A DNA stretch of 32,000 nt, taken from contig NC_013926.1 in assembly GCF_000025665.1 (NCBI RefSeq), positions 930,001 through 962,000 on the forward strand, given 5' to 3'. The notes under the pieces are model-generated. The model made no database searches. It was not told where the DNA came from and worked only from the letters and a program-made list of their open reading frames with translations. This stretch comes from Aciduliprofundum boonei T469 (lineage in GTDB: Archaea; Thermoplasmatota; Thermoplasmata; Thermoplasmatales; Aciduliprofundaceae). Made by a program: the position numbers and the translations under genes. Shown here piece by piece: positions 4,247 through 30,358 of this stretch (the stretch's first letter is position 1; each line of letters opens with the position of its first letter).

Positions 4247-4319
4247 TGCGGGTGCCGGGATTTGAACCCGGGGCAAAGCCGTGGCAGGGCCTCGTGTTAC
4301 CAGGCTACACCACACCCGC
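4247..4319 (-). tRNA. tRNA-Gly (anticodon GCC)
   Basis: The reverse complement GCGGGTGTGGTGTAGCCTGGTAACACGAGGCCCTGCCACGGCTTTGCCCCGGGTTCAAATCCCGGCACCCGCA folds as a cloverleaf. The acceptor stem is GCGGGTG/CACCCGC, the anticodon loop is CTGCCAC, and the T-arm is CCGGG-TTCAAAT-CCCGG. CCA is not encoded. Confidence 0.9.
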
Positions 4320-4341
4320 GCATTTGGGTGATATGATATCC

Positions 4342-4351
4342 AATATATAAG
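4342..4351 (-). promoter_or_regulatory. Putative TATA box for tRNA-Gly
   Basis: On the minus strand this reads CTTATATATT, centred about 27 nt upstream of the tRNA-Gly 5' end. Confidence 0.35.
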
Positions 4352-4356
4352 CGTAG

Positions 4357-4439
4357 CGCCGAGGGGGAGATTTGAACTCCCGAGGGCAGAGCCCAGTGGA
4401 TCTCGAATCCACCGCCTTGCCTGGCTAGGCTACCTCGGC
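4357..4439 (-). tRNA. tRNA-Ser (anticodon CGA), class II with a long variable arm
   Basis: The reverse complement is GCCGAGGTAGCCTAGCCAGGCAAGGCGGTGGATTCGAGATCCACTGGGCTCTGCCCTCGGGAGTTCAAATCTCCCCCTCGGCG. The acceptor stem is GCCGAGG/CCTCGGC, the anticodon loop is TTCGAGA, the variable arm is 14 nt (GGGC/GCCC stem), and the T-loop is TTCAAAT. Confidence 0.88.
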
Positions 4440-4490
4440 TCGCAAAAGGATTGATATTCCGTATTTAGATTTTTCTTCAAATAAAAAATG

Positions 4491-5420
4491 TTAAATTTTT
4501 GCTCTTAGAGACGCTATATCCTTGAGGAGCTCTTCTTTTTGTTTGGTTAGTTCTTTGATTCTTGTATTTAGGAACTTTATTTCACTCTGTAACTCTTCTA
4601 TCTCTTTCTCGAAATCCCTCAGTTTTTTCTCTTTCCTCTTATTTTCTTCCATAAGCCTGTCTATTTCTTTCTTGCTTGCTTGAAGTTTTTCTTCCCTCTC
4701 TACGAGTAGTCTTTGATAACCTGCCAACTCTTTTTCTTTTGTTATTAATTCCTTCTCCCAGTTCTTTAGCTTTTCCTCATACTCTGAATATTGTGCCCTC
4801 TTCTTCACTTCCAACTCATCAAGCTCTTTCAAGAGCAACTCTTTCTTTTTCTCAAGCTCAGCAATCTCCTCTTCTTTGCTTTCTATATTTCTCGCCCTTA
4901 ACTCGAGAGTATTTTTGAGATGCTCTATAGCTTTCTCTCTCTTAGAAAGCTCTACCTCTTCTTTCTTCTTTTCTTCATCCCACTTCTTGCGCTCTTCATC
5001 CCATTTGCTAATAATCTCCATTAAGCTTGATGTTTTATCTTCTACCTTTTTTAGAGAGTTTTTACTTTGCTCAATTAGGTTATTTAGTTCTTTTTCTCTT
5101 TCCTCTAAAGCTTTTTCTTTATCATCAATATTTTTCTCTCTCTCCAGAAGGGTATTTTCCACATCTTTTAATTTATCAATCATTGAATCAATAGTAGATA
5201 TCTTTTCAAACAGTTTTGATATTTTATCTTCCTTCTCCTCTATCTTCTTTTCTCTATCCTCAATTTCTTTATGCTTCTCAATTATCCCATCAATTTTTTC
5301 AAGGGCATCCTCTATTTTTTTATTTAATGTTGAATATTTCTTCATTAGCTCACTTATTTCCCTTTCATTCTCATACTCTGATTTTTTAGACCCACCAAAA
5401 AGCTTGCTCATGGTTTTCAC
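4491..5420 (-). CDS. Lys/Glu-rich coiled-coil protein of unknown function
   Basis: 309 aa, almost entirely heptad-like charged helix (EKEL, KKEEL and REKE runs), with no TM segment or catalytic motif. It has an ATGA overlap with the upstream coiled-coil ORF. Confidence 0.7.
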   Translation of the reverse strand: MKTMSKLFGGSKKSEYENEREISELMKKYSTLNKKIEDALEKIDGIIEKHKEIEDREKKIEEKEDKISKLFEKISTIDSMIDKLKDVENTLLEREKNIDDKEKALEEREKELNNLIEQSKNSLKKVEDKTSSLMEIISKWDEERKKWDEEKKKEEVELSKREKAIEHLKNTLELRARNIESKEEEIAELEKKKELLLKELDELEVKKRAQYSEYEEKLKNWEKELITKEKELAGYQRLLVEREEKLQASKKEIDRLMEENKRKEKKLRDFEKEIEELQSEIKFLNTRIKELTKQKEELLKDIASLRAKI

Positions 5421-5794
5421 CTCCTCAAGCTATCTTCTAATTCTAAGAGCATAAATCTCATCTTAGAAATGTATGCCCTCAAATCTTCTTCAAATGCATC
5501 TAATCTTTTGTCTATATCAGCCAGTTTGTTGAGCTTGCTTAAACTCTTATCTATAGAATCTTCAAGCTTTTTGCTCACATTTTTTGTGCTATCTTCAAAA
5601 TTTGAGATTATTTGAAAAGATGCAGTATTCAATTTTGCAGGCAAGGTATCAAGAATATCCTCTATATCACTTAATGTCTGAACCTTCTTATCTATCTCTT
5701 TCTGTCTTTTTAAAATAATATCCACCTTCTCATTTATTTCGTTAATCTGCTGCTTTAGAGATTCAATTTCTCTGAGTATATCGCTCTTCCCCAT
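5417..5794 (-). CDS. Small coiled-coil protein of unknown function
   Basis: The track ORF 5417..5878 would overlap the asparaginase gene. The internal ATG at 5794 (MGKSDILREIESLKQQINE...) removes that overlap and is preceded by TTTAAAT-type AT-rich sequence. Confidence 0.6.
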   Translation of the reverse strand: MGKSDILREIESLKQQINEINEKVDIILKRQKEIDKKVQTLSDIEDILDTLPAKLNTASFQIISNFEDSTKNVSKKLEDSIDKSLSKLNKLADIDKRLDAFEEDLRAYISKMRFMLLELEDSLRR

Positions 5795-5829
5795 GTTATA
5801 GAGATAGAGTGCAAAGAATTTAAATTTTT

Positions 5830-6654
5830 TCACTCTTTTTTGATCGCATAGGGCATAGTAAGGTTTGATAGTGCACATTCAGATTCTTTATCAATTGCTA
5901 TTATGCCTACGGGTATATCACCGAATCTCTCAAGTTCCTCTTTGCAAATTTCTTCCAATGGCATCTCACCTATTCTGTTGTACACATTTATTGAGAGCAT
6001 TCTCTTTATTATTTCTTCACCTATACCTGTGGCTACTACAGCTCCCTTTTCTCCGCAGTATATGCCAGCACCAGGGATTGGAGAATCACCTACTCTGCCT
6101 CGAAGGGTTAAGCTAGTTCCTCCTGTGGATACTGCAGCAGCAAAATCCCCATTGATTCTAGCTACCGCTCCAACGGTGTCTCCCAAGAATTCAAGGAAAA
6201 ATTCAGGATGATAGTACTCTGGTATTCCCCCATTTTTCAATTTTTTCAATATTCTCTCTCTCTTAGTTCTTGCCTTCTCTGTGGATGGGTCGTAGGATTC
6301 ATACCCCATTTTTCGAGCAAATTCTATTGCCCCATCTCCTGCCAAAATCAAGTGAGGGGATTTGAGCATAACATCCCTTGCAACGAGCACAGGATTCCTA
6401 ACATTTTCTATATTTATCACAGCTCCGAATTTTCCAGGTACCATCACGGCAGCATCCATCTGAATGCTTCCATCCAATCTCATATTGCTTCCTGTACCTG
6501 CATTGAATAAAGGGTCATCTTCCATAAGTACAACCGCTTTTACTACTGCATTAAGTGCATTTTTTTCTTTGAATGCAATATCTGCAAATTCTTCCACTTT
6601 TATTCTCAATTCACTCTTATTTGAGGCACCGCCATGGAGCACAAGAGAATTCAT
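5830..6654 (-). CDS. Isoaspartyl peptidase / L-asparaginase (plant-type, Ntn-hydrolase family)
   Basis: 274 aa with NAGTGS, the autoprocessing-site-like GDTVGAVA (Thr nucleophile), and GGTSLTLRGRVGDSPIPGAG motifs. Confidence 0.85.
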   Translation of the reverse strand: MNSLVLHGGASNKSELRIKVEEFADIAFKEKNALNAVVKAVVLMEDDPLFNAGTGSNMRLDGSIQMDAAVMVPGKFGAVINIENVRNPVLVARDVMLKSPHLILAGDGAIEFARKMGYESYDPSTEKARTKRERILKKLKNGGIPEYYHPEFFLEFLGDTVGAVARINGDFAAAVSTGGTSLTLRGRVGDSPIPGAGIYCGEKGAVVATGIGEEIIKRMLSINVYNRIGEMPLEEICKEELERFGDIPVGIIAIDKESECALSNLTMPYAIKKE

Positions 6655-6896: not shown

Positions 6897-7301
6897 ATGA
6901 TGAAATACACAATAAAGGAGGATCCTCATAAAAACGAGTTGGTTCAGAAAGTTATGGAAATAAGCGGTGAAAACATTTTCTCCTGCTATCAGTGCGGTCG
7001 GTGTTCATCTGGCTGTCCAATGGCCGAGTTTATGGATGTCTTGCCCAACCAAGTTTTTATGTTCCTGCAGGAAGGGGATGTAGATACCCTATTGAATGCA
7101 AAGACGCCTTGGATCTGTGCTGCCTGTTTTACCTGCACAGTTCGCTGCCCTGTTGGCTTAGATTTGGCGGCTGTGATGGAAGCGATTCGCGAGTTGCAGC
7201 TTAGAAAGAATTACGATTATGTAGATCCATACAAAGTTGAGGATCGTGAAGAATTGCCACCAATCGCTCTGGTGAGTAATTTCAGAAAATTCACGCCTTG
7301 A
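6897..7301 (+). CDS. hdrC: Heterodisulfide reductase subunit C-like (2x[4Fe-4S] helical ferredoxin)
   Basis: 134 aa with CYQCGRCSSGCP and CAACFTCTVRCP motifs, positioned directly before hdrB. Confidence 0.85.
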   Translation: MMKYTIKEDPHKNELVQKVMEISGENIFSCYQCGRCSSGCPMAEFMDVLPNQVFMFLQEGDVDTLLNAKTPWICAACFTCTVRCPVGLDLAAVMEAIRELQLRKNYDYVDPYKVEDREELPPIALVSNFRKFTP

Positions 7302-7310
7302 GGTGAAAGA

Positions 7311-8201
7311 ATGGGAAAGAAAATTATGTTTTATCCGGGATGTACATTAAAGGGAGTGGCAAAGAATTTGGAAGATAGCACTGTTGAAAGTGCAAGAGTT
7401 CTTGGATACGATTTCATAGAACTCCCTGGGTGGACTTGCTGTGGCGCTGTGTATGGACTTGCACAGGATAGTGTTAAATTCACAATTGCCAATGTTCGCA
7501 ATCTTATAAAGGCTCAGAATTATGGGAAAGAGATAGACGATAATCGCTTGGTTGCTGTTTGCTCAATGTGTTACAACAATTTGAGGAGAGCGCACATAGA
7601 TGTGATGAAAAATCGAGATAAGTTAGAAACTCTTGATCTTTTTATGGATGAGGAAGCCAATTATGAAGGAAACATAAATGTTCTCCATTATCTTCAATTT
7701 TTGAAGGATGATGTGGGCTTTGATAAAATTGCAGAGAAGGTTAAAAAGCCGCTGAAGGGCTTGAAGGTTGCACCTTATTATGGATGCTTACTCCTTCGTC
7801 CAGAAGAGATAGCCATAGATGACAGGGAGGATCCTCATATTTTGGAGGATCTCTTGAAAATATTGGGTGCGGAGGTTGTGGATTATCCTCTCAAGAATGA
7901 ATGCTGTGGCTCTTACCATACAGTAGACAAAAAGGAAATTGTTAGTGAGAGAACATATAAGTTGGTAAGTGTTGCGAAGGAGATGGGTGCAGATGTTATA
8001 GCAACCTCCTGCCCATTGTGCTTCTTCAATCTTGATAAGAGGCAGGAGATCGCTAAGAATAAGCATAATGACTTTGAGTATATGCCAATTGTTTATTTCA
8101 CCCAGCTAATGGCCATAGCCTTTGGCTTGACATCGCAGGATGTGCTTCATTTTGATAAACATTATATATCCCCTGAGGAGGTGCTTAAGAAATGGCTATG
8201 A
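7311..8201 (+). CDS. hdrB: Heterodisulfide reductase subunit B-like (two CCG domains)
   Basis: 296 aa. It has two CCG motifs (WTCCGAVYG and NECCGSYH) with flanking Cys (YPGCTLK, YYGCLL, SCPLCFFN). Confidence 0.9.
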   Translation: MGKKIMFYPGCTLKGVAKNLEDSTVESARVLGYDFIELPGWTCCGAVYGLAQDSVKFTIANVRNLIKAQNYGKEIDDNRLVAVCSMCYNNLRRAHIDVMKNRDKLETLDLFMDEEANYEGNINVLHYLQFLKDDVGFDKIAEKVKKPLKGLKVAPYYGCLLLRPEEIAIDDREDPHILEDLLKILGAEVVDYPLKNECCGSYHTVDKKEIVSERTYKLVSVAKEMGADVIATSCPLCFFNLDKRQEIAKNKHNDFEYMPIVYFTQLMAIAFGLTSQDVLHFDKHYISPEEVLKKWL

Positions 8202-11200
8202 AAAGAATTGGTGTATTTATATGCCACTGCGGTCGCAACATTGCGGGTACTGTAGATGTTAAGCGCGTTGCTGAGGAGATAGGAAAAAGAGAGGATGTTG
8301 CTTTTTCAACAACTTATGTTTTTATGTGCTCTCAACCTGGTCAGAAACTCATTGAAGATTCGATTAAGAAATACAATTTAGATGGTGTTGTTGTTGCAAA
8401 CTGTTCTCCCACTTTGCACGAAAGAACAATGCGCAATGCAGCTGCCAGAGCTGGGTTAAATCCCTATCGTGTGGAGATTGCAAATATTAGAGAGTGGGCT
8501 GCTTGGCCTCATGAGGATAATCCTGAAGCTGCTACTCGCAAGGCGATAAGAATTATTAATGCAACTATAGAGAAGTTGAAAGCCAACGCATCTCTGCATC
8601 CCCTTGAGGTTCCTGTTAAGAAGAGGGCCCTAGTCATCGGTGGAGGAGTTGCTGGAATGCAGGCAGCCCTTGATTTGGCGGATGCAGGAATTGAAACCGT
8701 TGTGGTTGAGAGAGAGCCATCTCTCGGGGGAAATATGATAAGATTGAGTGAAACCTTCCCGACCTTGGATTGTCCCCAGTGTATTCTCACGCCTAAGATG
8801 AATGATGTTGGAGGACATCCAAATATCAAGCTTTACACTTATAGTGAAGTTGAAGAGATAGAGGGCTATCTGGGCAATTTCAAGGTAAAGATAAAGAGAA
8901 AATCGCCTTTTATTGACTGGGATAAGTGTACAGGTTGCGGTGAGTGTGCAAAGGTGTGTCCAACAGTTTTGCCTAGCGATTTTGATTTGAAAATGGCTAC
9001 TCGTAAAGCTACCCACATACCCTTTGATCAGGCTGTACCTTTCAAATACACAATTACATACAATGGTGTTCCACCCTGTAATGCTGCTTGCCCCCTGCAT
9101 CTTGATGCCCAGGGTTATGTAGCCGCTGCCAAGGCTGGAAGATTTGACCGCTCAATAGATGTTGTTTGGGAAAAACTTCCATTTGCTGGCATAGCCGGTA
9201 GAATTTGTACACATCCTTGTGAAAGTGCCTGCTCTCGCGGTGATATAGATAAACCAGTTGGTATAAGAGAAATAAAGAGATTCGTTGCAGATTGGGCGGT
9301 GAAGAATAAGAGAAAGTACATTCTCCATGTGAAGGAGGAGAAGGATAAGAGTGTGGCTGTTATAGGTGCAGGTGCTGCGGGTCTTATGGCTGCACATGAC
9401 TTGAGAGAGATGGGCTATAAAGTTACCGTTTACGATAAATTGCCCGTGGTTGGTGGTATGCTTGCAGTTGGAATCCCGCCATATCGCTTACCTCAGGAGG
9501 TTATAGATTACGAGGTTCAGCCATTAATTGATGCGGGTGTGGAATTCGTATTAAATTACGAAGTTAACGAGAAGAATTTTGAAGAGATAAGAAAGAAGCA
9601 TGATGCCGTTATAATAGCTATAGGTACTCATAAAGAGAGACACCTTGGCATTCCCGGCGAGGAGAAAGCAATGCATGCGTTAGAACTTTTGAGAAAGGTA
9701 AATCTGGGAGAGGAAGTTGATCTCAAAGGTAAGAAAGTTGTGGTTATTGGAGGAGGCAATAGCGCCGTTGATGCTTCTCGCACTGCTTTGAGGCTTGGTG
9801 CTGATGTTACCATAGCATATAGGAGAACTCGCACAGAGATGCCTGCCATACCTGAGGAGATTGTGGATGCTGAGGAAGAGGGCGTGAAGTTCAAGTTCCT
9901 CGTATCGCCAGCTGAAATTTTGGATGGCAAGATAAAACTTGAAAAGATGAAGCTCGGAGAGAAAGATGCCAGTGGAAGAAGAAAGCCCATTCCCACGGGT
10001 GAGTATGAGTTGATGGATGCTGATGTAGTTGTACTTGCAGTTGGTGAACTTCCAGATGCTTCTTGGGCGGAGAAGTTGGGTATTGAAGTTGATAGGAATA
10101 GGATAAAGACCAATAAATTTATGCAAACATCTATAGAGAATGTATTTGCTGCAGGAGATGCTGTAACAGGAGCTTGGGACTGGGTACATGCAGCCGCTTA
10201 CGGTAGATGGGCAGCGAAGAATGTGGCACATTATCTTGAAGGAGAGGATATGGAAGAAGTTAAAATTGAAATGTCCTCCAGTTTGAAAGGATATAGGGAG
10301 TTGGCTTATCCTGCTCCAAGGCATGAGACAAAGAAGCTTGATATGGAGGAAAGAAAGAGCACATTTAAAGAATTCAATCTTGGATATGCAGATGAGGATG
10401 TTGTAGATGAGGCAAAGCGCTGTCTTGGGTGCGGTGGTTGTGCCAAGTGTGGTCTATGCGTAGAAGTTTGCGAAGCAAAGGCAATTGATTTACATATGCA
10501 AGATTGGTATGTTGAGGAGGAAGTTGGAGCAATAATAGTTGCCACTGGCTACGAGGTTATGCCTGCAGAGGCGTTTCCAGAACTTGGTGGGAAGTATCCA
10601 GATGTTATAACTTCTCTGCAGTTTGAAAGATTATTGGCTCCATCAGGGCCTACTGAGGGAATTCCCAGGAGGCCATCCGATGGGAAGATTCCAAAGAGCA
10701 TCGCGTTGGTGCACTGTGTTGGTTCAAGAGATCCCCAGAATGGCGTGCCCTATTGCTCAAGGATATGCTGTATGTACACCATAAAGCAGGGTATGCTGGT
10801 TAAGCATGCTATGCCCGATGTGGCAGTTTATGATTTCTACATTGACATTCGCTCTAATGGAAAGGGCTATGAGGAATTCTATCATCGTGCCAAGGAAGAG
10901 TACGGGGTGAATTTCATTCGTGGCAAAGTTTCCAAGGTGTACAAGGTTGGAGATAAGTACAGGGTACAGGGGGTTGATACCCTTACCGGAAGGATAATAG
11001 AAGTTGATGTTGATATGGTTATTCTTGCAACAGCTGCAAAAGGCTCATCAGGAGTGAAAGAGTTAGCAAAGAAATTGCGTATTCCTTACGATGAATGGGG
11101 CTGGTTAAAAGAGACTCATCTCAAACTCAAGCCATTGGAGACTCCAGTGGGCGGTGTATTCATAGCCGGTGCTGCCCAGTTTATAAAGGATATTACAGAT

Positions 11201-11509
11201 AGCGTGTCTCAGGGAAGTGGTGCAGCCGCCAAGGCTATGGCTCTCCTTTCCAAGCCTGAATTGGAGAAGGAGCCACTATTGGCAAGGGTGGATACTGAGA
11301 TATGTGCCGGCTGCGGTCGCTGTAAAGATCAGTGCGCCTATGGCGCGATAACTATAGATCCTGTGAGGCATGTTGCTATGGTAAATGAAGCACTGTGCGA
11401 AGGATGTGGTGCTTGCAGCGCAAACTGCCCAACCACTGCAATTCAAGTTGTGAATTTCAAGAAGGGTCAAGTTATTCGCGCTGTGGATGTGCTTGCGGAG
11501 GTGTTCTAA
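8192..11509 (+). CDS. hdrA: HdrA-like flavoprotein with a nested GltD/NfnB-like NAD(P)H-oxidoreductase module ('HdrL-like')
   Basis: 1105 aa. The HdrA N-domain (IGVFICHCGRNIAG, ANCSP) and FAD motif (ALVIGGGVAGMQAALDLA) are present, and the first half of the inserted ferredoxin is CTGCGECAKVCP. Residues about 288-690 carry GltD/NfnB motifs: PPCNAACP...GRICTHPCESAC, VAVIGAGAAGLMAAHDL, GKKVVVIGGGNSAVDASRTA and VFAAGD. The protein then resumes HdrA (CLGCGGCAKCGLCVEVC, ATGYE, VGGVFIAGAAQ) and ends with a C-terminal 2x[4Fe-4S] ferredoxin. An alternative start at 8198 gives an ATGA overlap with hdrB. Confidence 0.88.
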   Translation: MAMKRIGVFICHCGRNIAGTVDVKRVAEEIGKREDVAFSTTYVFMCSQPGQKLIEDSIKKYNLDGVVVANCSPTLHERTMRNAAARAGLNPYRVEIANIREWAAWPHEDNPEAATRKAIRIINATIEKLKANASLHPLEVPVKKRALVIGGGVAGMQAALDLADAGIETVVVEREPSLGGNMIRLSETFPTLDCPQCILTPKMNDVGGHPNIKLYTYSEVEEIEGYLGNFKVKIKRKSPFIDWDKCTGCGECAKVCPTVLPSDFDLKMATRKATHIPFDQAVPFKYTITYNGVPPCNAACPLHLDAQGYVAAAKAGRFDRSIDVVWEKLPFAGIAGRICTHPCESACSRGDIDKPVGIREIKRFVADWAVKNKRKYILHVKEEKDKSVAVIGAGAAGLMAAHDLREMGYKVTVYDKLPVVGGMLAVGIPPYRLPQEVIDYEVQPLIDAGVEFVLNYEVNEKNFEEIRKKHDAVIIAIGTHKERHLGIPGEEKAMHALELLRKVNLGEEVDLKGKKVVVIGGGNSAVDASRTALRLGADVTIAYRRTRTEMPAIPEEIVDAEEEGVKFKFLVSPAEILDGKIKLEKMKLGEKDASGRRKPIPTGEYELMDADVVVLAVGELPDASWAEKLGIEVDRNRIKTNKFMQTSIENVFAAGDAVTGAWDWVHAAAYGRWAAKNVAHYLEGEDMEEVKIEMSSSLKGYRELAYPAPRHETKKLDMEERKSTFKEFNLGYADEDVVDEAKRCLGCGGCAKCGLCVEVCEAKAIDLHMQDWYVEEEVGAIIVATGYEVMPAEAFPELGGKYPDVITSLQFERLLAPSGPTEGIPRRPSDGKIPKSIALVHCVGSRDPQNGVPYCSRICCMYTIKQGMLVKHAMPDVAVYDFYIDIRSNGKGYEEFYHRAKEEYGVNFIRGKVSKVYKVGDKYRVQGVDTLTGRIIEVDVDMVILATAAKGSSGVKELAKKLRIPYDEWGWLKETHLKLKPLETPVGGVFIAGAAQFIKDITDSVSQGSGAAAKAMALLSKPELEKEPLLARVDTEICAGCGRCKDQCAYGAITIDPVRHVAMVNEALCEGCGACSANCPTTAIQVVNFKKGQVIRAVDVLAEVF

Positions 11510-14056
11510 ATGGGAAAGGTACTCATATATGGACTCAGCCTTGCATCTTATCGTGCTGCTGCCAATTTCGCTCGGGCAGGGCACAAAGTAATATTGCTAA
11601 ATCGTGGAGAGTTTATATGGCACAAATTTACCCAGATGCAGTGGCAGAATCCCCGTGACATAATAAATGGATATTCTAAAGGCATCTTGCTTAATGTTGC
11701 AAATATGACAGGAAATATAGAGGTTTATCATAACTCTGAGTTACTGGGGGTGGAAGGAGGCCCTGGAAATTTTAAGGCGAGATTTAAGCACAGGCCACAG
11801 AGTGTAAATGAGTTCAAATGTATAGGTTGTGATTTATGCCATGAGAAATGTGATGTCAAGTTCATTCCTATGCCCCTTGGTCCAGGAATGAGAATAATCA
11901 AGAATGCAGAAGAGTGTTTGGATGTGTGTCCAGTAAAAGCCATTCAAATTCCTAAAGAAGAAGAGAAAGAGGAGAAAGTGGATGCTGTTATACTCTCTCC
12001 AGAATACGAGCCTGAGGATATAAAGAAATATGTTGGGGATAAGAAGTTCACCATGCCTTTCAGAGATTTTGCCTTCATGTTCAGGGGTAAGGGTGTAGAA
12101 AAGCAGTTCTTGAAGAGAGAAGACGGCAAAACTCCAGAATCTCTTGGATTTTTCATACCCGCAGGATTTGAAGGATACCTCGGCTCTTATGAGGAGCATG
12201 TGATAGTATTCCGAGAGGCATTGAACATGAAGGAGATGGACCCAAGTTTGGATGTTCACATATTCATGAAAGAAGTCCGTCTTTACGGCCATAATCAGAT
12301 GGCTTTATACGATAAAGCGATAGAAAAGGGAATAAATGTGCATATTATAGATGAATTGAACATAGAGGAGAAGGACGATTATCTTGTGGTGAATGATGTT
12401 AATATAGATTTGCTCGTTGTTATGCCTGGTCAAAAGATACCTGAGGATTGGAAGAATCTTGCTCAGAATCTTGGTTTAGAGACAGAGCATGGATTTGCAG
12501 TTACTAAGCCATTCACATTTGAAACCACGAAAGATGGAATATTTGCCATTGGTGAGTTTGTGAAGCCCGTTGGTAGTGCCGAAGCCATATACCAAGGCAC
12601 AGCAATAGTGCCTCAGGCAGAGAAGTATCTCAAACCGCCAGAGGAGCCACCGAAGAGAGAAGAAGTTGAATGGCTCCGTGATGATTTCAATCCAAAGGTT
12701 GGAGTGTTCATGTGCAGGTGCGCTCTTGGAAATCTAAATCCAAAAGTGGATGCAGATTATGTCATAGAAAAAGATTATCTTTGCTTGCATCCAGAGGATA
12801 TTGTAAAAGAAATAAAAGAGAAGGGCATAAATCGTGTTGTGTTTGCTGCATGTAGCCCTGCTTTGAGAGGTGCTATGTTAGAAATGGTTGCTTCTCAGGC
12901 AGGTATTCATCCCTCGTATGTAGAGCTTGTACAACTCAGGGAATATGTATCTAGGGTTGGAGGAGATGATAGAAAAGCAAGTGCAATGATCAATGGCGCA
13001 GTGGCTAAATCTAAAGCAAGTTATTTTGTGGATATACCAACGAGTGCCGTAACCAAGGGAGTTGCCATAATAGGAGGAGGACTTGCATCTCTAATTGCGG
13101 CAGATTATCTAGCTGAGAAAGTTCCTCTCGTTTATATCATAACTAAAGAGTTTGATACACCTCATAATGCTACGGGTGTGAAGGGTAATGTTCTCCATAT
13201 AAGCGATGATGAGTTGAACTCTTGGTACAATTCTCTTAAAGATAGGGTTCTTAAGAGAGCCAAGTGGATAAAGGAGGATGTAGAGAGTATTGATGGATAC
13301 CTCGGCAATTTCGTACTTAAGGCGGGAGAGGAAGAAATAAAGGCAGGAGTGCTAATAATAGCCACAGGTGGAGATGTTGTAGAAGGAGGAGAGCATATAA
13401 CCTCCCGTATGGAAGGGAATACCCTCCACTCATCTCTTGCCTCTCTTTATGCAAAGAGGAAAGGTGTCTCCGGAACATATGATTTAATGAAATCCTACTC
13501 CTTGCTTGATGTTGAGCCCCCAGAGGCAAAGCGTGGTGAGGGAGAGCCGATAGCATATGTGAAACCAAGGGAGATTAACAAGAAGATTGCAGAGATGCTG
13601 GGCATGAGGATAGATAAGGAGGGATTCTTGTTCTTTGCTGAAGAGCCCAGGGAATGGGTTGAGCGTGTTGGCATACAGTTTACACTTCTTGAAGATGCCT
13701 TTGGAGGAATTTTTGTAGCTGGACTTGCCCATAGGCCAATGAGCATTGAGGAAGAGGTTGAAGAGGCAGGTTTTGCAGCTCAAAGCGCTATTTATTTAAT
13801 GAATGATAGGCCATCTCCAGCAGGAAAGTTTGTAAGCGTGACGAATCCCAGGAGATGCGCTGGATGTGGAATATGCGTAGATGCCTGTTTTGCAGGCGCA
13901 AGGTATATTGATGAGGAGGATCATATTGCCAAGGTCAGAACCGAGCTTTGCGTGGGCTGTGCTGCATGTGCAAATGCATGCCCAAGCGGGGCTGCGGTTG
14001 TCATGCCGTATAATCCAAATGGAGTGTTTAAAATGTTAAAGGAGGTAGTAAAATGA
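11510..14056 (+). CDS. Tandem, partly degenerate HdrA-like protein (two HdrA cores in one chain)
   Basis: 848 aa. Residues 1 to about 375 parallel the HdrA core (GNIEVYHNSELLGVEGGPGNFKARFK...CIGCDLCHEKC versus PNIKLYTYSEVEEIEGYLGNFKVKIK...CTGCGECAKVC), but the dinucleotide motif is degenerate (IYGLSLASY). Residues from about 395 onward carry an HdrA N-domain-like segment (VGVFMCRCALGNL, FAACSP), an intact GVAIIGGGLASLIAADYL, and a C-terminal CAGCGICVDAC...CVGCAACANACP. Confidence 0.75.
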   Translation: MGKVLIYGLSLASYRAAANFARAGHKVILLNRGEFIWHKFTQMQWQNPRDIINGYSKGILLNVANMTGNIEVYHNSELLGVEGGPGNFKARFKHRPQSVNEFKCIGCDLCHEKCDVKFIPMPLGPGMRIIKNAEECLDVCPVKAIQIPKEEEKEEKVDAVILSPEYEPEDIKKYVGDKKFTMPFRDFAFMFRGKGVEKQFLKREDGKTPESLGFFIPAGFEGYLGSYEEHVIVFREALNMKEMDPSLDVHIFMKEVRLYGHNQMALYDKAIEKGINVHIIDELNIEEKDDYLVVNDVNIDLLVVMPGQKIPEDWKNLAQNLGLETEHGFAVTKPFTFETTKDGIFAIGEFVKPVGSAEAIYQGTAIVPQAEKYLKPPEEPPKREEVEWLRDDFNPKVGVFMCRCALGNLNPKVDADYVIEKDYLCLHPEDIVKEIKEKGINRVVFAACSPALRGAMLEMVASQAGIHPSYVELVQLREYVSRVGGDDRKASAMINGAVAKSKASYFVDIPTSAVTKGVAIIGGGLASLIAADYLAEKVPLVYIITKEFDTPHNATGVKGNVLHISDDELNSWYNSLKDRVLKRAKWIKEDVESIDGYLGNFVLKAGEEEIKAGVLIIATGGDVVEGGEHITSRMEGNTLHSSLASLYAKRKGVSGTYDLMKSYSLLDVEPPEAKRGEGEPIAYVKPREINKKIAEMLGMRIDKEGFLFFAEEPREWVERVGIQFTLLEDAFGGIFVAGLAHRPMSIEEEVEEAGFAAQSAIYLMNDRPSPAGKFVSVTNPRRCAGCGICVDACFAGARYIDEEDHIAKVRTELCVGCAACANACPSGAAVVMPYNPNGVFKMLKEVVK

Positions 14057-14499
14057 GTGAAGAAAAATTTGAACCAGTGATTGTAGGATTCTTCTGTAAC
14101 TGGTGTACATCCGCAGCTGCGGATCTAGCAGGTACTTCTAGATTGCATTATCCAGCGAATATAAGACCAATAAGGGTGATGTGCTCCTCGACCGTTGACC
14201 CTGTGTATCTGGTGAGGGCTTTACAGGAGGGTGCTGATGCCACTATACTCGGTGGTTGCCATCCTGGAGATTGCCACTACATAACTGGTAATTACAAAGC
14301 AAGGAGGAGAGTTGCAATAGTGAAAACCGTTCTAAAATCTCTGGGATTTGATGATACAAGGGTTCTTCTAGAGTGGATATCTGGAAGCGAGGGTCCCAAG
14401 TTTGCGAGGGTTATGAATGAATACACAGATTATATAAAGAAGAGGGGCCCCTCGGACTTCAAGTACCTTGATTCTCTTGGAGGTGAAGAAATTGAATGA
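14053..14499 (+). CDS. mvhD: MvhD-like protein (methyl-viologen-reducing hydrogenase delta subunit family, [2Fe-2S])
   Basis: 148 aa with VGFFCNWCTSAAADLAG, IRVMCSS and GGCHPGDCHY motifs. It has an ATGA overlap with the preceding gene. Confidence 0.9.
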   Translation: MSEEKFEPVIVGFFCNWCTSAAADLAGTSRLHYPANIRPIRVMCSSTVDPVYLVRALQEGADATILGGCHPGDCHYITGNYKARRRVAIVKTVLKSLGFDDTRVLLEWISGSEGPKFARVMNEYTDYIKKRGPSDFKYLDSLGGEEIE

Positions 14500-14506
14500 G
14501 AATGAA

Positions 14507-15559
14507 ATGCTTAAAAAATTCATAAAGGACGCTTTTGATAAGGGTCTAATTGAAGCTGTTATGGCTCCTTCTGCCACAAAAGATTCGTACAGTTATGCTT
14601 TAATAACCAAGAAGGAAGATGTTGATAAATTAACGCCCATAGCTCCTGTAATGCAGTGGAGTGGGGCTGATATGATTCGCAGAATTACAAGATTGAAGAA
14701 ATCTGAGAGGAAATTGCTTGCAATTTTAAGACCTTGTGAGTCTAGAACCTATAAGGAACTCGTTAAGTTCAATCAGATAAATCCTGAGAACATAATAGTT
14801 TTGACTTATGATTGCCCTGGCACCGTTCATGCTAGAAATTTCAAGTATGAGCCCATGACTTCAGAAAAGCTTATTGAAGAGATGAAGAATGGAAATATAA
14901 GTAGCAAGATTCGCGAGTCTTGTAAAGTTTGCGAGTATCCTACACCAATTAAAGGAGTTGGAGACATAGGATTGGGTATTGTGAATACCGATGAACCTGT
15001 GTTTTTCTCTCTCAGTGAGAACGGCAAGGAGTTCTTGGCAAATATGGGCATACAGGAGGGAGAGAGGGATGATACTCAGTGGGTCAAGATACACAGGGAG
15101 AACAGGGAGAAATGGTTAAAAGAGGAGCGCATTACAGGAGGTCGCAAAGGTTTAGAAGATTTCTTATCTTCTTGCTTGAATTGTCATAACTGCAAAGATA
15201 TGTGTCCAATATGCTTCTGTAAAGAATGTTTCTTCGAGGATCACAGCGTTTTCGATTATGAATCAAATAAGTTTTACAACTGGGCCGATGATAAGGATGG
15301 TATAAGACTGCCCACGGATAAATCTCTCTTCCACATTGGAAGGTTAATACACATGGGTACATCCTGCGTTGGTTGTGGTCTTTGTCAGCAGGCATGTCCT
15401 ATGGATATTCCATTATACAGGCTATTTGGAATAGTTGGCAATGATCTCCAGAAAGTGTTTAACTATAAACCTGGCGTTAATGATGATCTTCCTCCAGTTA
15501 TGGAATTCCGTGAGGATGAATTGCATGAGTTTGAAGGCCTCTTTGGGGGTGAGGAGTAA
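14507..15559 (+). CDS. Fe-S oxidoreductase subunit, AsrA / sulfhydrogenase-beta (HydB) / FrhB-like
   Basis: About 350 aa with CLNCHNCKDMCPICFCKEC and CVGCGLCQQACPMDIP motifs, the pattern seen in AsrA/HydB-type proteins. The start is uncertain: ATG 14507, or TTG 14492 six nt after GGAGGTG. The track start at 14468 overlaps mvhD. Confidence 0.65.
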   Translation: MLKKFIKDAFDKGLIEAVMAPSATKDSYSYALITKKEDVDKLTPIAPVMQWSGADMIRRITRLKKSERKLLAILRPCESRTYKELVKFNQINPENIIVLTYDCPGTVHARNFKYEPMTSEKLIEEMKNGNISSKIRESCKVCEYPTPIKGVGDIGLGIVNTDEPVFFSLSENGKEFLANMGIQEGERDDTQWVKIHRENREKWLKEERITGGRKGLEDFLSSCLNCHNCKDMCPICFCKECFFEDHSVFDYESNKFYNWADDKDGIRLPTDKSLFHIGRLIHMGTSCVGCGLCQQACPMDIPLYRLFGIVGNDLQKVFNYKPGVNDDLPPVMEFREDELHEFEGLFGGEE

Positions 15560-16380
15560 TGGGTAAGAAGGTTGAGATATTGGATGTGGATAGCAAGCAA
15601 ATAATGGATGATATAAGGAAAGCGGCCTCACCACCTGAGGAAGTGGAACACTGGGTTACTATATATGTTATGGGAAAACCGTATAGGGTTCCTGCAGGTT
15701 TGACTATAATGAAGGCCTTAGAATATGCAGGTTATCGCTTTATTAGAAGTTCTGGATGTCGTGCTGGATTCTGCGGTGCCTGCGCAACAGTTTATAGGAA
15801 AAAGGGAGAGTATAGGTTTAGAACTGCCTTGGCTTGTCAGACTACAGTAGAAGACGAGATGTACCTTGCTCAGATTCCTTTTGTGCCTGCAAACAAGGCG
15901 AAATATAATATAGATGAGATTGAACCAGGACCAACTACACTCTTGGAATATTATCCTGAAATTGCTCGCTGTGTATCCTGCAACACATGTACCAAGGCCT
16001 GCCCCCAAGAGCTGGATGTTATGTACTATATCCAGTATGGTATCCGTGGCGATATTGCCAAGGTTGCTGAGCTGAGCTTTGACTGTATTCAGTGTGGTTT
16101 GTGTACATTGAGATGTCCTGCCGAGATTCAGCACTATCATATGGCCCAGCTAGCAAGGAGATTATACGGCAAGTACTATCAGCCTAAGAGTCCATGGCTA
16201 AAGAGAAGGCTCAAGGAGATCGATAGTGGAATGTATGAGAAAGCTTATGAGAATATCAAGAAGTTGAGGGAAGATCCAGAGGCAATTAAGGCCCTGTATT
16301 ACAAGATTCTCAACGAAGGAAGGGAGAGGGAAGAGAAGTTGATTGAAGATCCCTTGGATTTTATTAAAGGAGAGGATTAA
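15559..16380 (+). CDS. SdhB/FrdB-like iron-sulfur protein (plant-type [2Fe-2S] plus 2x[4Fe-4S] helical ferredoxin)
   Basis: 273 aa with the [2Fe-2S] motif GCRAGFCGACATV...ACQ, followed by CVSCNTCTKACP and CIQCGLCTLRCP. It shares one nt (TAATG) with the upstream gene. Confidence 0.7.
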   Translation: MGKKVEILDVDSKQIMDDIRKAASPPEEVEHWVTIYVMGKPYRVPAGLTIMKALEYAGYRFIRSSGCRAGFCGACATVYRKKGEYRFRTALACQTTVEDEMYLAQIPFVPANKAKYNIDEIEPGPTTLLEYYPEIARCVSCNTCTKACPQELDVMYYIQYGIRGDIAKVAELSFDCIQCGLCTLRCPAEIQHYHMAQLARRLYGKYYQPKSPWLKRRLKEIDSGMYEKAYENIKKLREDPEAIKALYYKILNEGREREEKLIEDPLDFIKGED

Positions 16381-16381
16381 A

Positions 16382-18079
16382 ATGACCCTGAAGCTTATTA
16401 GAGGATACCCTGAATATATGCGTGAAAGTATTGAAATGGTTGAGAAAACTAGAGATCAAAGGATAAAGGAAAAGGAGAAGGAGAAGGAACTAGCACTCTC
16501 TGCAGAGGAAAGAAGAGAGGTTCTAAACAAGTTTCACCCAGATTACGCCCCCGGTGGAAAGAGGGAGCTGAAGGTAGGTGTAAATAAAGGAGAGATAGTG
16601 CCCAATGAAGTTGCAGACATTCTTGAGGCATGGCCTGCTTTAGATCCAGATGAGGTTGATTTGAACGATATCGATTATGATGTTGATATCCTTATAATAG
16701 GTGGTGGCGGCGCTGGAACTGTAGCTGCTCTCTGGGCTAACAACGAAGGGATATCTGCTGAAAACATACTTATAGCAACGAAGTTGAGGCATGGTGATGC
16801 CAATTCAATGATGGCTCAGGGTGGTATACAGGCTGCGGATAGGCCTTGGGATTCGCCCATTATTCATTACCTTGATGTTCTCGGCGGAGGTCACTTTGCT
16901 AACAAGCATGAGCTGGTTAAGGCGCTTACGGAAGATGCTCCAAAGATAATAAAATGGCATGAAGACTTAGGAGTGATGTATGATAAGGATGAGAAAGGTA
17001 ACTTCATTGAGCGCTGGGGTGGCGGAACCTCAAGAAAGAGATTACACTCTGCTAAAGATTATACAGGAATGGAGATTATGCGTGTTATAAGAGATGAAGC
17101 GAGAAACAGGGAAATACCAGTTTTAGAATTCAGTCCTGCTGTTGAGTTAATAACAACGGAAGATGGAGAGATTGGAGGAGCTATACTTTGGAATATGGAA
17201 ACCAAGGAGTACTATGTTGTGAGGGCTAAAGCAACGGTCCTAGCTACAGGTGGCTGGGGTAGATTGCATATCAGGGGATTCCCAACCACTAACCACTATG
17301 GCGCTACAGCGGATGGCTTGGTTATGGCCTATCGCGCTGGGGCGAGATTGAGAGATTTGGAATCTGTACAGTACCATCCTACCGGAGCTGCCTATCCTGA
17401 GCAGATTGTAGGATTGCTCATAACTGAAAAGGTTAGGGCCATGGGTGCTACCCCCGTGAATAAATACGGCGAAAGATTTGTATTCCCACTAGAGCCCAGA
17501 GATGTAGAGGCAGCAATGTTCATTAGAGAATGCTTTGGCAAAGGTAACTGCGTGCAAACTCCTACTGGAATGCGCGGAATATGGCTTGACTCGCCTATGA
17601 TTGAAGAATTGCAAGGAGAAGGGGCTATAAGAAAGAATTTAGATGCTATGTACCGTATGTACAAGAGATTCGGAATAGATATGACTAAGGATCCAATATT
17701 GGTGTTCCCAACTCTGCACTATCAGAACGGAGGAGTTGAAATCAACGCGGATGCTCAGGTCCTTAAGGGCGATGGTACGCCATATCCAAGATTCTTTGCA
17801 GGTGGAGAAGTTGAGGGTGGAGTGCATGGAAAGAACCGCCTTATGGGTAATTCGCTCTTGGATTACAATGTGTTTGGTAGGAGAGCAGGAATCTCTGCTG
17901 CAAAGGTTGCTCGTAACTCTGGTAAGCCTGGAAAGCTGAGTTTGAGGCATGTGAAGATATACTCGGAAGAAGTAAAGAAGATAAACGTGCCATTGTCGAG
18001 AAGGTCTCCTATCCTTCTTCCCGATTATAGGGGAAAGAGAGTGTTGGCCAGGAAGATAGATCTTCCTGTATTACAATGA
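16382..18079 (+). CDS. Fumarate reductase / succinate dehydrogenase-family flavoprotein (soluble TfrA-like), with an N-terminal extension of about 100 aa
   Basis: Start set at ATG 16382, just after the upstream stop and a GGAGAGG SD. Motifs present are ILIIGGGGAG, QYHPTG, ITEKVRAMG (catalytic Arg), HYQNGGVEI and GGEVEGGVHGKNRLMGNSLLD. Asn sits at the position of the covalent-FAD His (ANSMMAQGG). Confidence 0.85.
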   Translation: MTLKLIRGYPEYMRESIEMVEKTRDQRIKEKEKEKELALSAEERREVLNKFHPDYAPGGKRELKVGVNKGEIVPNEVADILEAWPALDPDEVDLNDIDYDVDILIIGGGGAGTVAALWANNEGISAENILIATKLRHGDANSMMAQGGIQAADRPWDSPIIHYLDVLGGGHFANKHELVKALTEDAPKIIKWHEDLGVMYDKDEKGNFIERWGGGTSRKRLHSAKDYTGMEIMRVIRDEARNREIPVLEFSPAVELITTEDGEIGGAILWNMETKEYYVVRAKATVLATGGWGRLHIRGFPTTNHYGATADGLVMAYRAGARLRDLESVQYHPTGAAYPEQIVGLLITEKVRAMGATPVNKYGERFVFPLEPRDVEAAMFIRECFGKGNCVQTPTGMRGIWLDSPMIEELQGEGAIRKNLDAMYRMYKRFGIDMTKDPILVFPTLHYQNGGVEINADAQVLKGDGTPYPRFFAGGEVEGGVHGKNRLMGNSLLDYNVFGRRAGISAAKVARNSGKPGKLSLRHVKIYSEEVKKINVPLSRRSPILLPDYRGKRVLARKIDLPVLQ

Positions 18080-18089
18080 GGTGCTTAGA

Positions 18090-18863
18090 ATGAGAATAAT
18101 GTTACATGGTTGGGATACCTCCCATAGATTGGGCGTACCTGAAATCTGCGATTCAATGACCTCAATAGTCAAGAAGATGGGGCATGAGTATGTCCCCAAT
18201 GAAAGTAAGGTTATCTGCGCAGAAGCTATAGGTTTTTTGGGCTATGATAACCTAACTGATGATTTTGCAAAAGCAACAGTCAAAGAGATTGAAGAGAAGG
18301 TAAGCAAATATGACATAGACATGATTCTCACTGCTTATGCAGCACCATATGCTGCATGGAGCAAAGAGCGTGAGGGTTTCCTCGTTAAAAGGGGCTATGA
18401 ACTTCCAGTGCCAATTGAGCATATTGCCACCTTCTTATATAAGAATCTGGATAAGTTAAAATTCAAAGAGCTTGATATGGCAGTGCTAATGCATGATGGA
18501 TGCACTCTAGGGCGCAAGATGCGTGTTGCTGAGGAGCCAAGGAAGGTACTTGAGAAGATTCCCAAGTTGAAGTATGTGAATTTTGACCATCCTGAGTTGT
18601 ATGTGAAAGAGAGAGAGCTTAAGCCATGGGATATATCCGCTTGTCCCGGTGGCTGGTTAGATTTTACCCTGCCAGAATTAATGCCCTATGTAGCTAGCAA
18701 TGTCATTCGGGAGTACGCTTTGCCGAGAGAAGTGGATGTCATTGTTACCACCTGTGGAAATGGATACCATGCCTTCAAAGCGGGAATAAAGCATGGGGAA
18801 TTTGACATCAAAGCTATGGCTTATCCAATGCTCATAGATATGGCTCTGGAGGGGGTGCAGTAA
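18090..18863 (+). CDS. Degenerate CCG-domain protein (LutA/HdrB/GlpC-like)
   Basis: By-eye alignment to LutA/YkgE: HDGCTLGRKMRVAEEPRKVLEKI aligns with HPSCSLARKLGVKDEPLTLLKNV, ACPGGW with TCCGFGG, and TTCGNGYH with VSCLLNISG. The N-terminal CCG repeat has lost its cysteines. ATG 18090 lies 6 nt after GAGGTG; the track start is GTG 18081. Confidence 0.6.
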   Translation: MRIMLHGWDTSHRLGVPEICDSMTSIVKKMGHEYVPNESKVICAEAIGFLGYDNLTDDFAKATVKEIEEKVSKYDIDMILTAYAAPYAAWSKEREGFLVKRGYELPVPIEHIATFLYKNLDKLKFKELDMAVLMHDGCTLGRKMRVAEEPRKVLEKIPKLKYVNFDHPELYVKERELKPWDISACPGGWLDFTLPELMPYVASNVIREYALPREVDVIVTTCGNGYHAFKAGIKHGEFDIKAMAYPMLIDMALEGVQ

Positions 18864-29813: not shown

Positions 29814-29817
29814 AAGT

Positions 29818-30042
29818 CTACACCTCCATTGCCTCGGTATATACGGTTTTCTTTCCATTGATGTAACCTCTTTTCTTATTGATCTTCTCCCATATTTCGG
29901 GGTGATGATACCTGAGGTGATTTCTTCGCTCTGAAGAATGCACTATTTCTCCGCAATAAACGCATCTATAGTACTTTCCAGAGCGGTCTAGATAGTACGG
30001 GTAGAAGTGAGCCCACAATTCACTTCTTTTCCCAACACTCAT
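29818..30042 (-). CDS. Small C2H2 / BED-like zinc-finger protein
   Basis: 74 aa. SELWAHF...YRCVYCGEIVHSSERRNHLRYHH contains C-x2-C-x11-H-x3-H preceded by W/F aromatics. It lies immediately upstream of the integrase. Confidence 0.6.
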   Translation of the reverse strand: MSVGKRSELWAHFYPYYLDRSGKYYRCVYCGEIVHSSERRNHLRYHHPEIWEKINKKRGYINGKKTVYTEAMEV

Positions 30043-30179: not shown

Positions 30180-30358
30180 CACACTCACCTTTCACTAATG
30201 ACATGTGAAAAGTAATATATAAACTTTTTTCAAAAGTCAAAAGTGAAATTAGAAAATATATTTATAAAAGGTGCTATATTCTAAAAGATAGCATTTTCCC
30301 ATGAGAATTGACATTTTGAATAGAAAAAGTTATATATTTCAAAAGTCTTATTTGACAT

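Follow-up and report, generated by a model that had tools for sequence, protein, structure and literature searches.

The hdrA gene and the domain nested in it

The window analysed here is a stretch of 32,000 nucleotides of Aciduliprofundum boonei T469 (contig NC_013926.1, positions 930,001 to 962,000), a member of the DHVE2 / Aciduliprofundum group of Thermoplasmata, whose TBP gene is also present in the window. The subject of this report is its hdrA gene (8192-11509, plus strand), an uninterrupted reading frame for 1105 amino acids (aa), which was assigned by Pfam, alignment with PDB chains and AlphaFold2 modelling to the "type III" form of HdrA, the form with a nested GltD/NfnL-like module.

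The protein begins as an ordinary HdrA. The N-terminal domain, the first half of the thioredoxin-reductase fold and the first motif of the inserted ferredoxin domain (C246, C249, C252, C256) occupy aa 1-256 (8192-8959, plus strand, as are all features of the gene), and in the PDB sequence search aa 4-289 run in step with residues 4-289 of 5odc_A. There follows a central block which is specific to the form of the protein (aa 257-780; 8960-10531), comprising the remainder of the inserted ferredoxin domain together with the module. The stretch missing from the plain form lies within it (aa 292-752; 9065-10447) and consists of the permuted GltD/NfnL-like module, about aa 292-749, plus C750, the counterpart of the first cysteine of ferredoxin motif 2 in solved HdrA. 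Motif 2 (C750, C753, C756, C760; 10439-10471) corresponds to C293, C296, C299 and C303 of 5odc_A and is invariant. The second half of the thioredoxin-reductase fold and the C-terminal ferredoxin domain complete the chain (aa 781-1105; 10532-11509; equivalent to HdrA residues of about 330-650, the sequence search having aligned aa 749-1099 with about 300-650). The module is therefore situated between motif 1 (C246-C256) and motif 2 (C750-C760), that is, inside the inserted ferredoxin domain.

The Pfam domain scan identifies Fer4_20 (aa 294-373, E 3.7e-19) and Pyr_redox_2 (aa 387-668, E 1.8e-53), with HdrA-type FAD and Fer4 matches on both sides, and the top NCBIfam models are HdrA/HdrA2 for the flanks and the GltD family for the middle. 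Among PDB chains the middle is matched by NfnL (aa 294-685 with 5jca_L 50-473, E 5e-86), by NfnB too, by NfnA(Bfu) (aa 293-696) and by GltD (aa 291-684). In a 668-aa type I orthologue (P0017), 83% identical over aa 1-291 and 90% over aa 753-1105, 24 residues replace the 461 of aa 292-752; once the module is removed, the type I domain pattern is left. The AlphaFold2 model, built on 52 homologues, reached a pLDDT of 88.8 and a pTM of 0.78. Its two flanks superpose on the entire HdrA chains 8rvu_A, 5odc_A and 7bkb_A (TM-score normalised to the target 0.90-0.93), and its module on NfnL (TM-score to the target 0.77-0.79, root-mean-square deviation 2.3 Å). The HdrA core is complete, with the N-terminal Cys domain, the thioredoxin-reductase-fold domain for flavin adenine dinucleotide (FAD) and the C-terminal 2x[4Fe-4S] ferredoxin domain, and its Cys and FAD motifs are invariant in the 52 homologues. 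Residues 292-752 are a domain-in-domain insertion, and the two flanks jointly rebuild one HdrA fold. In G+C fraction the insert (0.448) hardly departs from its flanks (0.432 and 0.470), and its composition thus bears no sign of recent foreign origin.

An initial annotation, made from the sequence alone, had proposed precisely an insertion of one domain into another instead of an end-to-end fusion, with flanks that together form a single HdrA fold, and the PDB alignments, P0017, the homologues and the model superposition bear it out. The collinearity with canonical HdrA up to CTGCGECAKVCP (aa 246-257) was recovered, and the motifs which it quoted stand at the residues given for them: PPCNAACP (294-301), CTHPCESAC (339-347), VAVIGAGAAGL (388-398), VVVIGGGNSAVD (516-527), VFAAGD (651-656) and CLGCGGCAKCGLCVEVC (744-760). 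The limits had to be redrawn, however. The interval 9053-10261 (aa 288-690), taken for the module, is its core, the whole extending from aa 292 to about 749 and the form-differing block from aa 257 to 780. Similarly, the Cys-rich motif at aa 744-760, at which HdrA was said to resume, is HdrA from C750 to C760, but C744 and C747 belong to the module.

A circular permutant of NfnB and GltD

The cluster-ligand region of the module (C296, C300, C339, C343, C347, K362; 9071-9283; Pfam Fer4_20) corresponds residue by residue to C104, C108, C147, C151, C155 and K170 of StnC. Behind it lie the FAD-binding GxGxxG motif VAVIGAGAAGL (aa 388-398; 9353-9385) and a Rossmann motif for reduced nicotinamide adenine dinucleotide phosphate (NADPH), namely GGGNSA (GxGxxA, aa 520-525) with Y543-R544-R545 (9737-9832). 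The six ligands and the NADPH motifs are invariant in the 52 homologues. The last piece, aa 715-747 (KLDMEERKSTFKEFNLGYADEDVVDEAKRCLGC; 10334-10432), is found at the C-terminal end of the insert, yet it is homologous to the N-terminus of NfnB and GltD and ends in RC744-LG-C747. It aligns with residues 11-45 of Pyrococcus furiosus NfnL, 10-46 of Thermotoga maritima NfnB and 22-53 of GltD, as well as with 553-595 of NfnA(Bfu) and about 535-566 of StnC, and the start of the insert, PPC296NAAC300P, matches NfnL from residue 50 onwards. In the numbering of the module, aa 3-394 correspond to NfnL 50-473 and aa 422-456 to NfnL 11-45. When the module was re-ordered in the manner of NfnB, one continuous alignment to NfnL 11-473 was obtained and the score rose from 298 to 313 bits; against T. 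maritima NfnB (9-462) it rose from 254 to 273 bits, and against GltD (19-471) from 191 to 212 bits. Instead of the linear order of NfnB/NfnL, in which an N-terminal RCxxC-x6-CxxxCP is followed by the FAD and NADPH domains, the alignments give a circular permutant of NfnB/GltD with the RCxxC half-motif (C744, C747) at its C-terminal end.

The six cysteines of CLGCGGCAKCGLCVEVC are shared out between the two partners: C744 and C747 join C296 and C300 in the first cluster motif of the module, and the remaining four are HdrA motif 2. In the first cluster motif of the module, the chain enters between the second and the third Cys; it continues to the end of the nucleotide domains, returns through a linker to the helix and RCxxC which are "N-terminal" in NfnB, and exits directly into ferredoxin motif 2 of HdrA. 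Every one of the 15 Cys in the two ferredoxin-like units is invariant across the homologues, and so are R432, GxGxxA and Y543-R544-R545; the 15 Cys together with K362 match exactly the ligand count of four clusters. By analogy with DPD and NfnB, the distal cluster is presumably held by C744, C747, C296 and C347, and the proximal one by C300, C339, C343 and K362. Since C747 of the module and C750 of HdrA are three residues apart, the distal cluster of the module should adjoin a ferredoxin cluster of HdrA.

In proteins ranging from 489 to 1504 aa the complete module is found again in colinear form, at many positions, and to judge by these alignments the permuted module is a widely reused, insertable unit. 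Two proteins, P0307 (494 aa) and P0316 (489 aa), are free-standing and already permuted GltD/NfnL-like proteins, which start at PCxxxCP or at most about 20 residues from it and stop at most about 20 residues from RCxxC, so that the permuted unit also occurs by itself, with no host protein around it.

Kinship with StnC and NfnA(Bfu)

The best PDB matches of the module by phmmer are NfnA(Bfu) (9n5u_A, E 6e-108; 9bov_A, E 9e-105) and StnC (8oh5_C, E 6e-92), with NfnL 5jca_L below these types in the same search (E 1e-87), and the module is colinear with 9bov_A 102-567 and 8oh5_C 102-566. It possesses the characters of the StnC/NfnA(Bfu) type, that is, the permuted order with PCxxxCP first and EAxRCxxC last, a proximal cluster of three Cys and one Lys, and the NADPH motifs. 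In the alignment K362 corresponds to K170 of StnC and R432 to R239. StnC K170 has been described as an essential Lys ligand of cluster C7, conserved in NfnA(Bfu), where NfnB and NfnL have Glu (PMC10482914, PMC12018979). That Glu ligand of the FAD-proximal [4Fe-4S] cluster is absent from the module, its place being taken by K362, which is invariant in 52 sequences. The FAD of this domain in StnC/NfnA has been identified by structure and mutagenesis as a non-bifurcating, NADPH-oxidising entry point (PMC10482914, PMC12018979), and it is to this entry domain, not to plain NfnB, that the HdrA module is closest in sequence. The assignment to the GltD/NfnB type made in the initial annotation stands for the fold and the motifs, but not for plain NfnB.

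The GxGxxA and Y-R-R motifs are identical to those of the NADPH-binding NfnL, StnC and NfnA(Bfu). From GGGNSA and the invariant Y543-R544-R545 the use of NADPH rather than NADH is predicted, and NADPH is the likely nucleotide of the module. No NfnA/NfnS-like partner ([2Fe-2S] plus FAD, NAD-binding) was found among the open reading frames (ORFs) of the window, and no BfuB/BfuC (NuoF/NuoE-like) genes were found in it; the host of the module is HdrA and not the NuoG/HydA-like subunit of a BfuABC complex.

Plain and nested forms at one locus

The two forms of HdrA were compared in 14 species of DHVE2 (GTDB species representatives), the window locus being denoted W. The nested form occurs in six of the 14 (L001-L007 and L017, of which two are divided between contigs) and a plain HdrA of 668 aa in eight (L008-L015), all in the same syntenic operon. 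Outside aa 257-780 nested and plain proteins are 82-92% identical (82-92% in the N part, 83-92% over aa 781-1105), whereas identity drops to 43% in the junction segment aa 257-291 and to 47% in aa 753-780. These segments cluster by form, with bootstrap values of 100% for type III and 98% for type I; on their 63 columns only, all nested forms as one clade receive 11%.

The HdrA flanks of DHVE2, of both forms, make one clade (100%). In the tree of neighbour genes (1795 aa) W is joined with the plain locus L014 (97%), L003 with the plain locus L013 (99%) and L001 with the three plain loci L008, L010 and L011 (100%), but in the tree of the HdrA N-core (aa 1-245) the nested loci are monophyletic at 100%, the value for the C-core being 0%. 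The N-core groups by form and the neighbour genes do not, which argues for exchange by homologous recombination among DHVE2 lineages; these trees indicate that the nested form has moved in this way, as a segment which begins near the 5' end of hdrA and runs through the block to its end. Sliding DNA identity between the window and the related loci gave no sharp breakpoints because the loci are only 70-90% identical at the DNA level, and protein trees were used instead. No silent copy of the plain-form block was detected by tblastn of the window, which matched the resident gene alone, and the search for repeats flanking the block returned only short matches at chance level. The best module from outside DHVE2 is about 51% identical to that of DHVE2, and no donor was identified among the homologues compared.

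Plain HdrA proteins of the subfamily (P0017, P0025, P0038, P0121-P0127) carry a conserved, Lys-rich loop of 22-25 aa between Cys1 and Cys2 of motif 2, at the very spot where the module is inserted and where other HdrAs have 2-8 residues. The 22-aa loop of the DHVE2 plain form is common to its nearest plain relatives outside DHVE2. The simple view that the plain form is the nested form minus the module was rejected, as the junctions are only 43-47% identical and the loop is kept in those relatives.

A bacterial pair from an Rnf-bearing lineage, L020 with a nested HdrA (P0007; 10001-13378) and L022 with a plain one (P0123; 10001-12025), is syntenic over more than 20 kb. Its HdrA flanks are 93% identical, the junction segments 54% and the other operon proteins, HdrA2 excepted, 86-94%; at the DNA level the homology breaks off at about aa 211 of the nested protein and resumes at about aa 792. 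Further such pairs are P0125/P0010 (94%) and P0126/P0008 (87%). On this comparison nested and plain forms are alternative states at one syntenic locus in DHVE2 and in at least one bacterial lineage, and it may be new that sister species have the plain version at this same place. It is proposed tentatively, with rather less than even confidence, that a long-lived dimorphism of one locus has been kept or repeatedly re-introduced by homologous recombination in several unrelated vent lineages (DHVE2 and WOR-3-like bacteria), natural populations switching the redox partner of the low-potential arm of an Hdr/fumarate-reductase-like complex between ferredoxin and NADPH by exchange of the block of about 520 aa at aa 257-780. 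If true, nature itself would here have swapped a module of an electron-bifurcating enzyme.

Operon and genomic context

The gene belongs to an operon in the order hdrC-hdrB-hdrA-hdrA2-mvhD followed by FdhB-like, SdhB-like and TfrA/SdhA-like genes, all on the plus strand, so that the company of HdrBC and MvhD expected in the initial annotation is confirmed by Pfam and NCBIfam. The hdrC-like gene (6897-7301; 134 aa, 2x[4Fe-4S]; Pfam Fer4_8/Fer4_17, with NCBIfam HdrC and QmoC N-terminal matches below cut-off) is conserved upstream of hdrB-hdrA in the DHVE2 and bacterial loci. hdrB (7311-8201; 296 aa, two CCG domains, Pfam CCG E 1.7e-21), whose 3' end overlaps the start of hdrA by 10 nucleotides, scores 170 bits against TIGR03288 HdrB and 159 bits against MFR SdhE, both below cut-off. 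hdrA2 (11510-14056; 848 aa) has an N-terminal extension of about 390 aa before its HdrA-like part, of which aa 394-547 align with HdrA 3-182, and a C-terminal Fer4. It is succeeded by mvhD for a [2Fe-2S] electron-transfer protein (14053-14499; 148 aa, Pfam FlpD E 6.6e-49) and by a gene for an Fe-S protein resembling the C-terminal part of FdhB/FrhB (14468-15559; 363 aa, PDB FdhB 9t1s_M E 5e-28), whose homologues in L020-L022 have faint or weak FrhB_FdhB_C matches. The operon is closed by an SdhB/FrdB-like [2Fe-2S] plus 2x[4Fe-4S] protein, which by Pfam and NCBIfam also resembles the N-terminal part of TfrB (15559-16380; 273 aa), and a fumarate reductase / succinate dehydrogenase-type (TfrA/SdhA) flavoprotein (16343-18079; 578 aa, Pfam FAD_binding_2 E 1.9e-69), which scores 307 bits against NCBIfam TfrA with its cut-off of 718; the TfrB-like matches are weak.

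The operon lies among C4-dicarboxylate genes, with citrate lyase and asparaginase upstream and, downstream of the TfrA-like gene, a LutA/LutB-like pair, malic enzyme, sucCD, a 530-aa ORF, a TrmO-like gene and fumarase. Its core, hdrC-hdrB-hdrA ... hdrA2-mvhD-FdhB-like, recurs around bacterial homologues, and L020 and L022 have in addition SdhB-like and SdhA-like genes, asparagine- and citrate-related genes and Rnf genes.

The most variable gene of the operon is hdrA2, with 67-77% aa identity among the DHVE2 loci, where its neighbours mostly have 80-98%, and only 38% between L020 and L022; it looks like a second swappable component. The pair at 18081-20144, LutA-like (CCG) and LutB-like (LUD plus Fer4), 3' of the TfrA-like gene, is found in all five nested-form loci with data and in three of eight plain-form loci, an association which may be an effect of phylogeny. 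Neither Pfam nor NCBIfam matches the 530-aa ORF between sucD and the TrmO-like gene (23529-25121). Near the end of the window, a gene for a tyrosine recombinase/integrase (28851-29858, minus strand) precedes a stretch of low GC (0.32-0.39), in which small helix-turn-helix and other ORFs occur; the interval 28851-32000 may be an integrated element. At 4247-5878, where the GC is 0.32, tRNA-Gly(GCC) and tRNA-Ser(CGA) stand on the minus strand beside two low-GC coiled-coil (SMC/Rad50-like) ORFs.

Proposed electron path and alternative explanations

All cofactor ligands and nucleotide motifs being invariant in the 52 homologues, the module is most naturally read as a built-in port for pyridine nucleotides, as the initial annotation had suggested and as had previously been published; most likely the module functions as a built-in NADPH port. 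The host is an ordinary HdrA of the electron-bifurcating type, with N-terminal cluster, FAD, inserted ferredoxin and C-terminal ferredoxin domains, and the module of about 460 aa, with its own FAD, NADPH site and two [4Fe-4S] clusters, is placed in series with the inserted ferredoxin domain, in the arm by which plain HdrA reduces ferredoxin. We infer that NADPH is the donor and reduces the module FAD, which by homology with StnC/NfnA(Bfu) would be a non-bifurcating converter from two-electron to one-electron transfer. Electrons would proceed to the proximal cluster (C300, C339, C343, K362), to the distal cluster (C744, C747, C296, C347), to the two clusters of the inserted ferredoxin domain and, one at a time, to the HdrA FAD. 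The high-potential branch would lead through HdrC/HdrB to the SdhAB-like, fumarate-reductase-like enzyme and fumarate, or to some disulfide, and the low-potential branch, if any, through the MvhD/HdrA2/FdhB-like proteins to ferredoxin. The whole can be seen as a putative soluble NADPH:fumarate system, possibly ferredoxin-coupled. The joint reading, in which a type III HdrA bears a non-bifurcating NADPH port in the form of a circular permutant, NADPH is the donor and the forms have spread by recombination, is given a probability of about 0.7.

Several considerations weigh against it. DHVE2 has no known thiol/disulfide substrate of HdrBC. The cluster ligands were assigned by analogy with DPD/NfnB, and that the clusters should be adjacent was argued from the C747/C750 spacing and homology. 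The fumarate link is suggested by gene order and by family matches below threshold, and the trees are neighbour-joining trees of sequences derived from metagenome-assembled genomes (MAGs). The module sits on the low-potential exit arm of plain HdrA, so that NADP+ could equally be an acceptor, and the plain-form species run the same operon without the module, hence NADPH cannot be the sole possible donor. Finally, PMC12054007 inferred NADH, not NADPH, for the sequences of that study.

The main rival is that of NADP+ as acceptor, the module replacing ferredoxin on the low-potential arm. The HdrA FAD would bifurcate electrons from the MvhD/HdrA2/FdhB-like proteins, of which the low-potential one would end in NADPH; a switch from the plain to the nested form would then replace reduced ferredoxin by NADPH as the product. 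The module does stand in the domain which reduces ferredoxin or polyferredoxin in solved Hdr complexes; modules of the GltD type are reversible in principle, another donor route must exist for the plain form in the same operon, and a GltD domain would block access of ferredoxin according to PMC12054007. Nevertheless, in every characterised relative (GltD, StnC, NfnA-Bfu) the module draws electrons from NADPH, a ferredoxin-level electron spent on NADP+ would waste energy, and there is no evidence on the identity of the separate donor, and this direction of flow is rated as rather unlikely. Use of NADH, inferred in that paper from a GXGXXG argument, is improbable for the present protein: the GxGxxG found here is the FAD site, and the second Rossmann motif is GGGNSA with the invariant Y-R-R, in HdrA and in all 52 aligned homologues.

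It is less probable again, because of the StnC-type features, that the nested FAD bifurcates as well, like that of NfnB in NfnAB/NfnSL, with two bifurcation sites in the protein. Such a role was proposed for the ANME-1 HdrA-NfnB in PMC9012536, and it could draw on the 37-40% identity and the 2.3 Å deviation to bifurcating NfnL/NfnB and on the invariant R432, the equivalent of the N5-contacting Arg of NfnB. StnC, however, has the same Arg without the N5 contact, the module scores higher against the non-bifurcating StnC/NfnA(Bfu) and is colinear with them, K362 is found where NfnB has Glu, and the [2Fe-2S]-FAD partner of the NfnA/NfnS kind is missing from the ORFs of the window. That the gene is an assembly chimera of hdrA and gltD/nfnB, or a decaying fusion, was rejected; no evidence speaks for it, and the identical architecture with the same neighbours is found on contigs of six independent DHVE2 MAGs. 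Dozens of 90%-identity protein clusters among the best 120 matches cover the full length, the insertion point is residue-exact across homologues, all ligands are invariant, the frame is open and the model of the single chain has high confidence.

HdrA is one of the few known scaffolds for flavin-based electron bifurcation, and its possible donors and acceptors are an active question. Close relatives are distinguished here only by the presence or absence of the module. If the NADPH-port reading holds, these natural pairs (the window with L014, L020 with L022) set a ferredoxin arm against an NADPH arm while the rest of the complex is very much alike. Kinship with the same permuted, insertable module in the structurally solved StnC/NfnA provides testable predictions on ligands, nucleotide specificity and the non-bifurcating role. 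What makes the case interesting is the circular permutation with its assignment to the StnC type, the probable specificity for NADPH, an operon context of the fumarate-reductase type and the occurrence of plain and nested forms at one locus.

Comparison with known systems

The nested architecture is not new and has already been published as type III HdrA. Chadwick et al. 2022 (PMC9012536) described an NfnB-like insertion of about 500 aa interrupting the inserted ferredoxin domain of HdrA9-11 of ANME-1 and suggested NADPH coupling; the name "type III HdrA" comes from PMC12054007 (2025), which covers nine sequences of ANME-1 and Bathyarchaeota with structure predictions and proposes that the GltD domain blocks the access of ferredoxin and admits NAD(P)H. 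The retrieved passages of both sources make no mention of the permutation, the Lys ligand, the GxGxxA/YRR signature of NADPH, a wide bacterial distribution or a plain/nested dimorphism. The published type III HdrA shares with the present one a GltD/NfnB-like domain of about 460-500 aa in the inserted ferredoxin domain, a proposed NAD(P)H port, an otherwise type I pattern and a place in hdr gene clusters. The present protein differs in its host, DHVE2 (Thermoplasmata), which does not metabolise methane, and in an operon with a fumarate-reductase-like flavoprotein in place of methanogenesis-linked partners. A literature search on Hdr in Aciduliprofundum/DHVE2 returned no title or abstract apparently addressing this operon.

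The type III design is not confined to methane-metabolising archaea, being widespread in bacteria as well as in heterotrophic vent archaea. Among the best 120 matches, to which the counts of full-length clusters refer, the nested form of about 1100 aa occurs in many 90%-identity clusters of bacteria (WOR-3, TA06, Stahlbacteria, others) and archaea (DHVE2, Thorarchaeota). Some HdrA relatives of about 1085-1092 aa (P0130, P0135, P0136 of Nezhaarchaeota, P0139) lack Fer4_20 and have extra matches of the Pyr_redox type; in these, HdrA may have been enlarged in another way.

HdrL of Desulfobacterium autotrophicum was described in 2009 as an HdrA/glutamate-synthase hybrid followed by mvhD (PMC2702500), and the comparison was made through HdrL-like homologues of 1440-1690 aa, HdrL itself being taken by its description. 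The initial annotation was right about large HdrL-like proteins with a GltD-like module, but they are not joined end to end: in these homologues HdrA-like segments enclose the module on both sides, at the site which corresponds to that of the present protein. They differ in an extra HdrA-like unit, a partly missing HdrA N-terminal domain and 37-45% identity to the HdrA flanks. With 1105 aa, a single HdrA unit and mvhD only after hdrA2, the present gene is not an HdrL, for which about 1400-1700 aa, a further HdrA-like unit and then mvhD are typical.

The "succinate operon" of Pseudoclostridium thermosuccinogenes (PMC7282089) combines fumarase, Flx-Hdr and fumarate reductase, and bifurcation from NADH to ferredoxin and fumarate has been proposed for it. 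The two systems are alike in that an hdrABC/mvhD-type complex (there FlxABCD-HdrABC) is encoded with fumarase and a soluble fumarate reductase, here a putative one. The difference concerns the entry of the pyridine nucleotide, which in P. thermosuccinogenes is a separate subunit, FlxA, and here is nested in HdrA.

With NfnB/NfnL (of NfnAB/NfnSL) and GltD the module shares the fold, the FAD and NADPH motifs and two [4Fe-4S] clusters, but it is permuted, has Lys for Glu at the non-Cys ligand and is not a free subunit. The closest likeness is to StnC and NfnA (PDB 8oh5, 9bov, 9n5u), which give the best sequence and structure matches of the insert. The order along the polypeptide (PCxxxCP, nucleotide domains, EAxRCxxC), the proximal Lys ligand, the NADPH motifs and the insertion into a larger Fe-S host are common to both. 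Their host, however, is a NuoG/[FeFe]-hydrogenase-like subunit which feeds a "flavobicluster" bifurcation site with flavin mononucleotide (FMN), whereas here the host is HdrA with its own FAD of the bifurcating type, and the module is only 37-41% identical to theirs.

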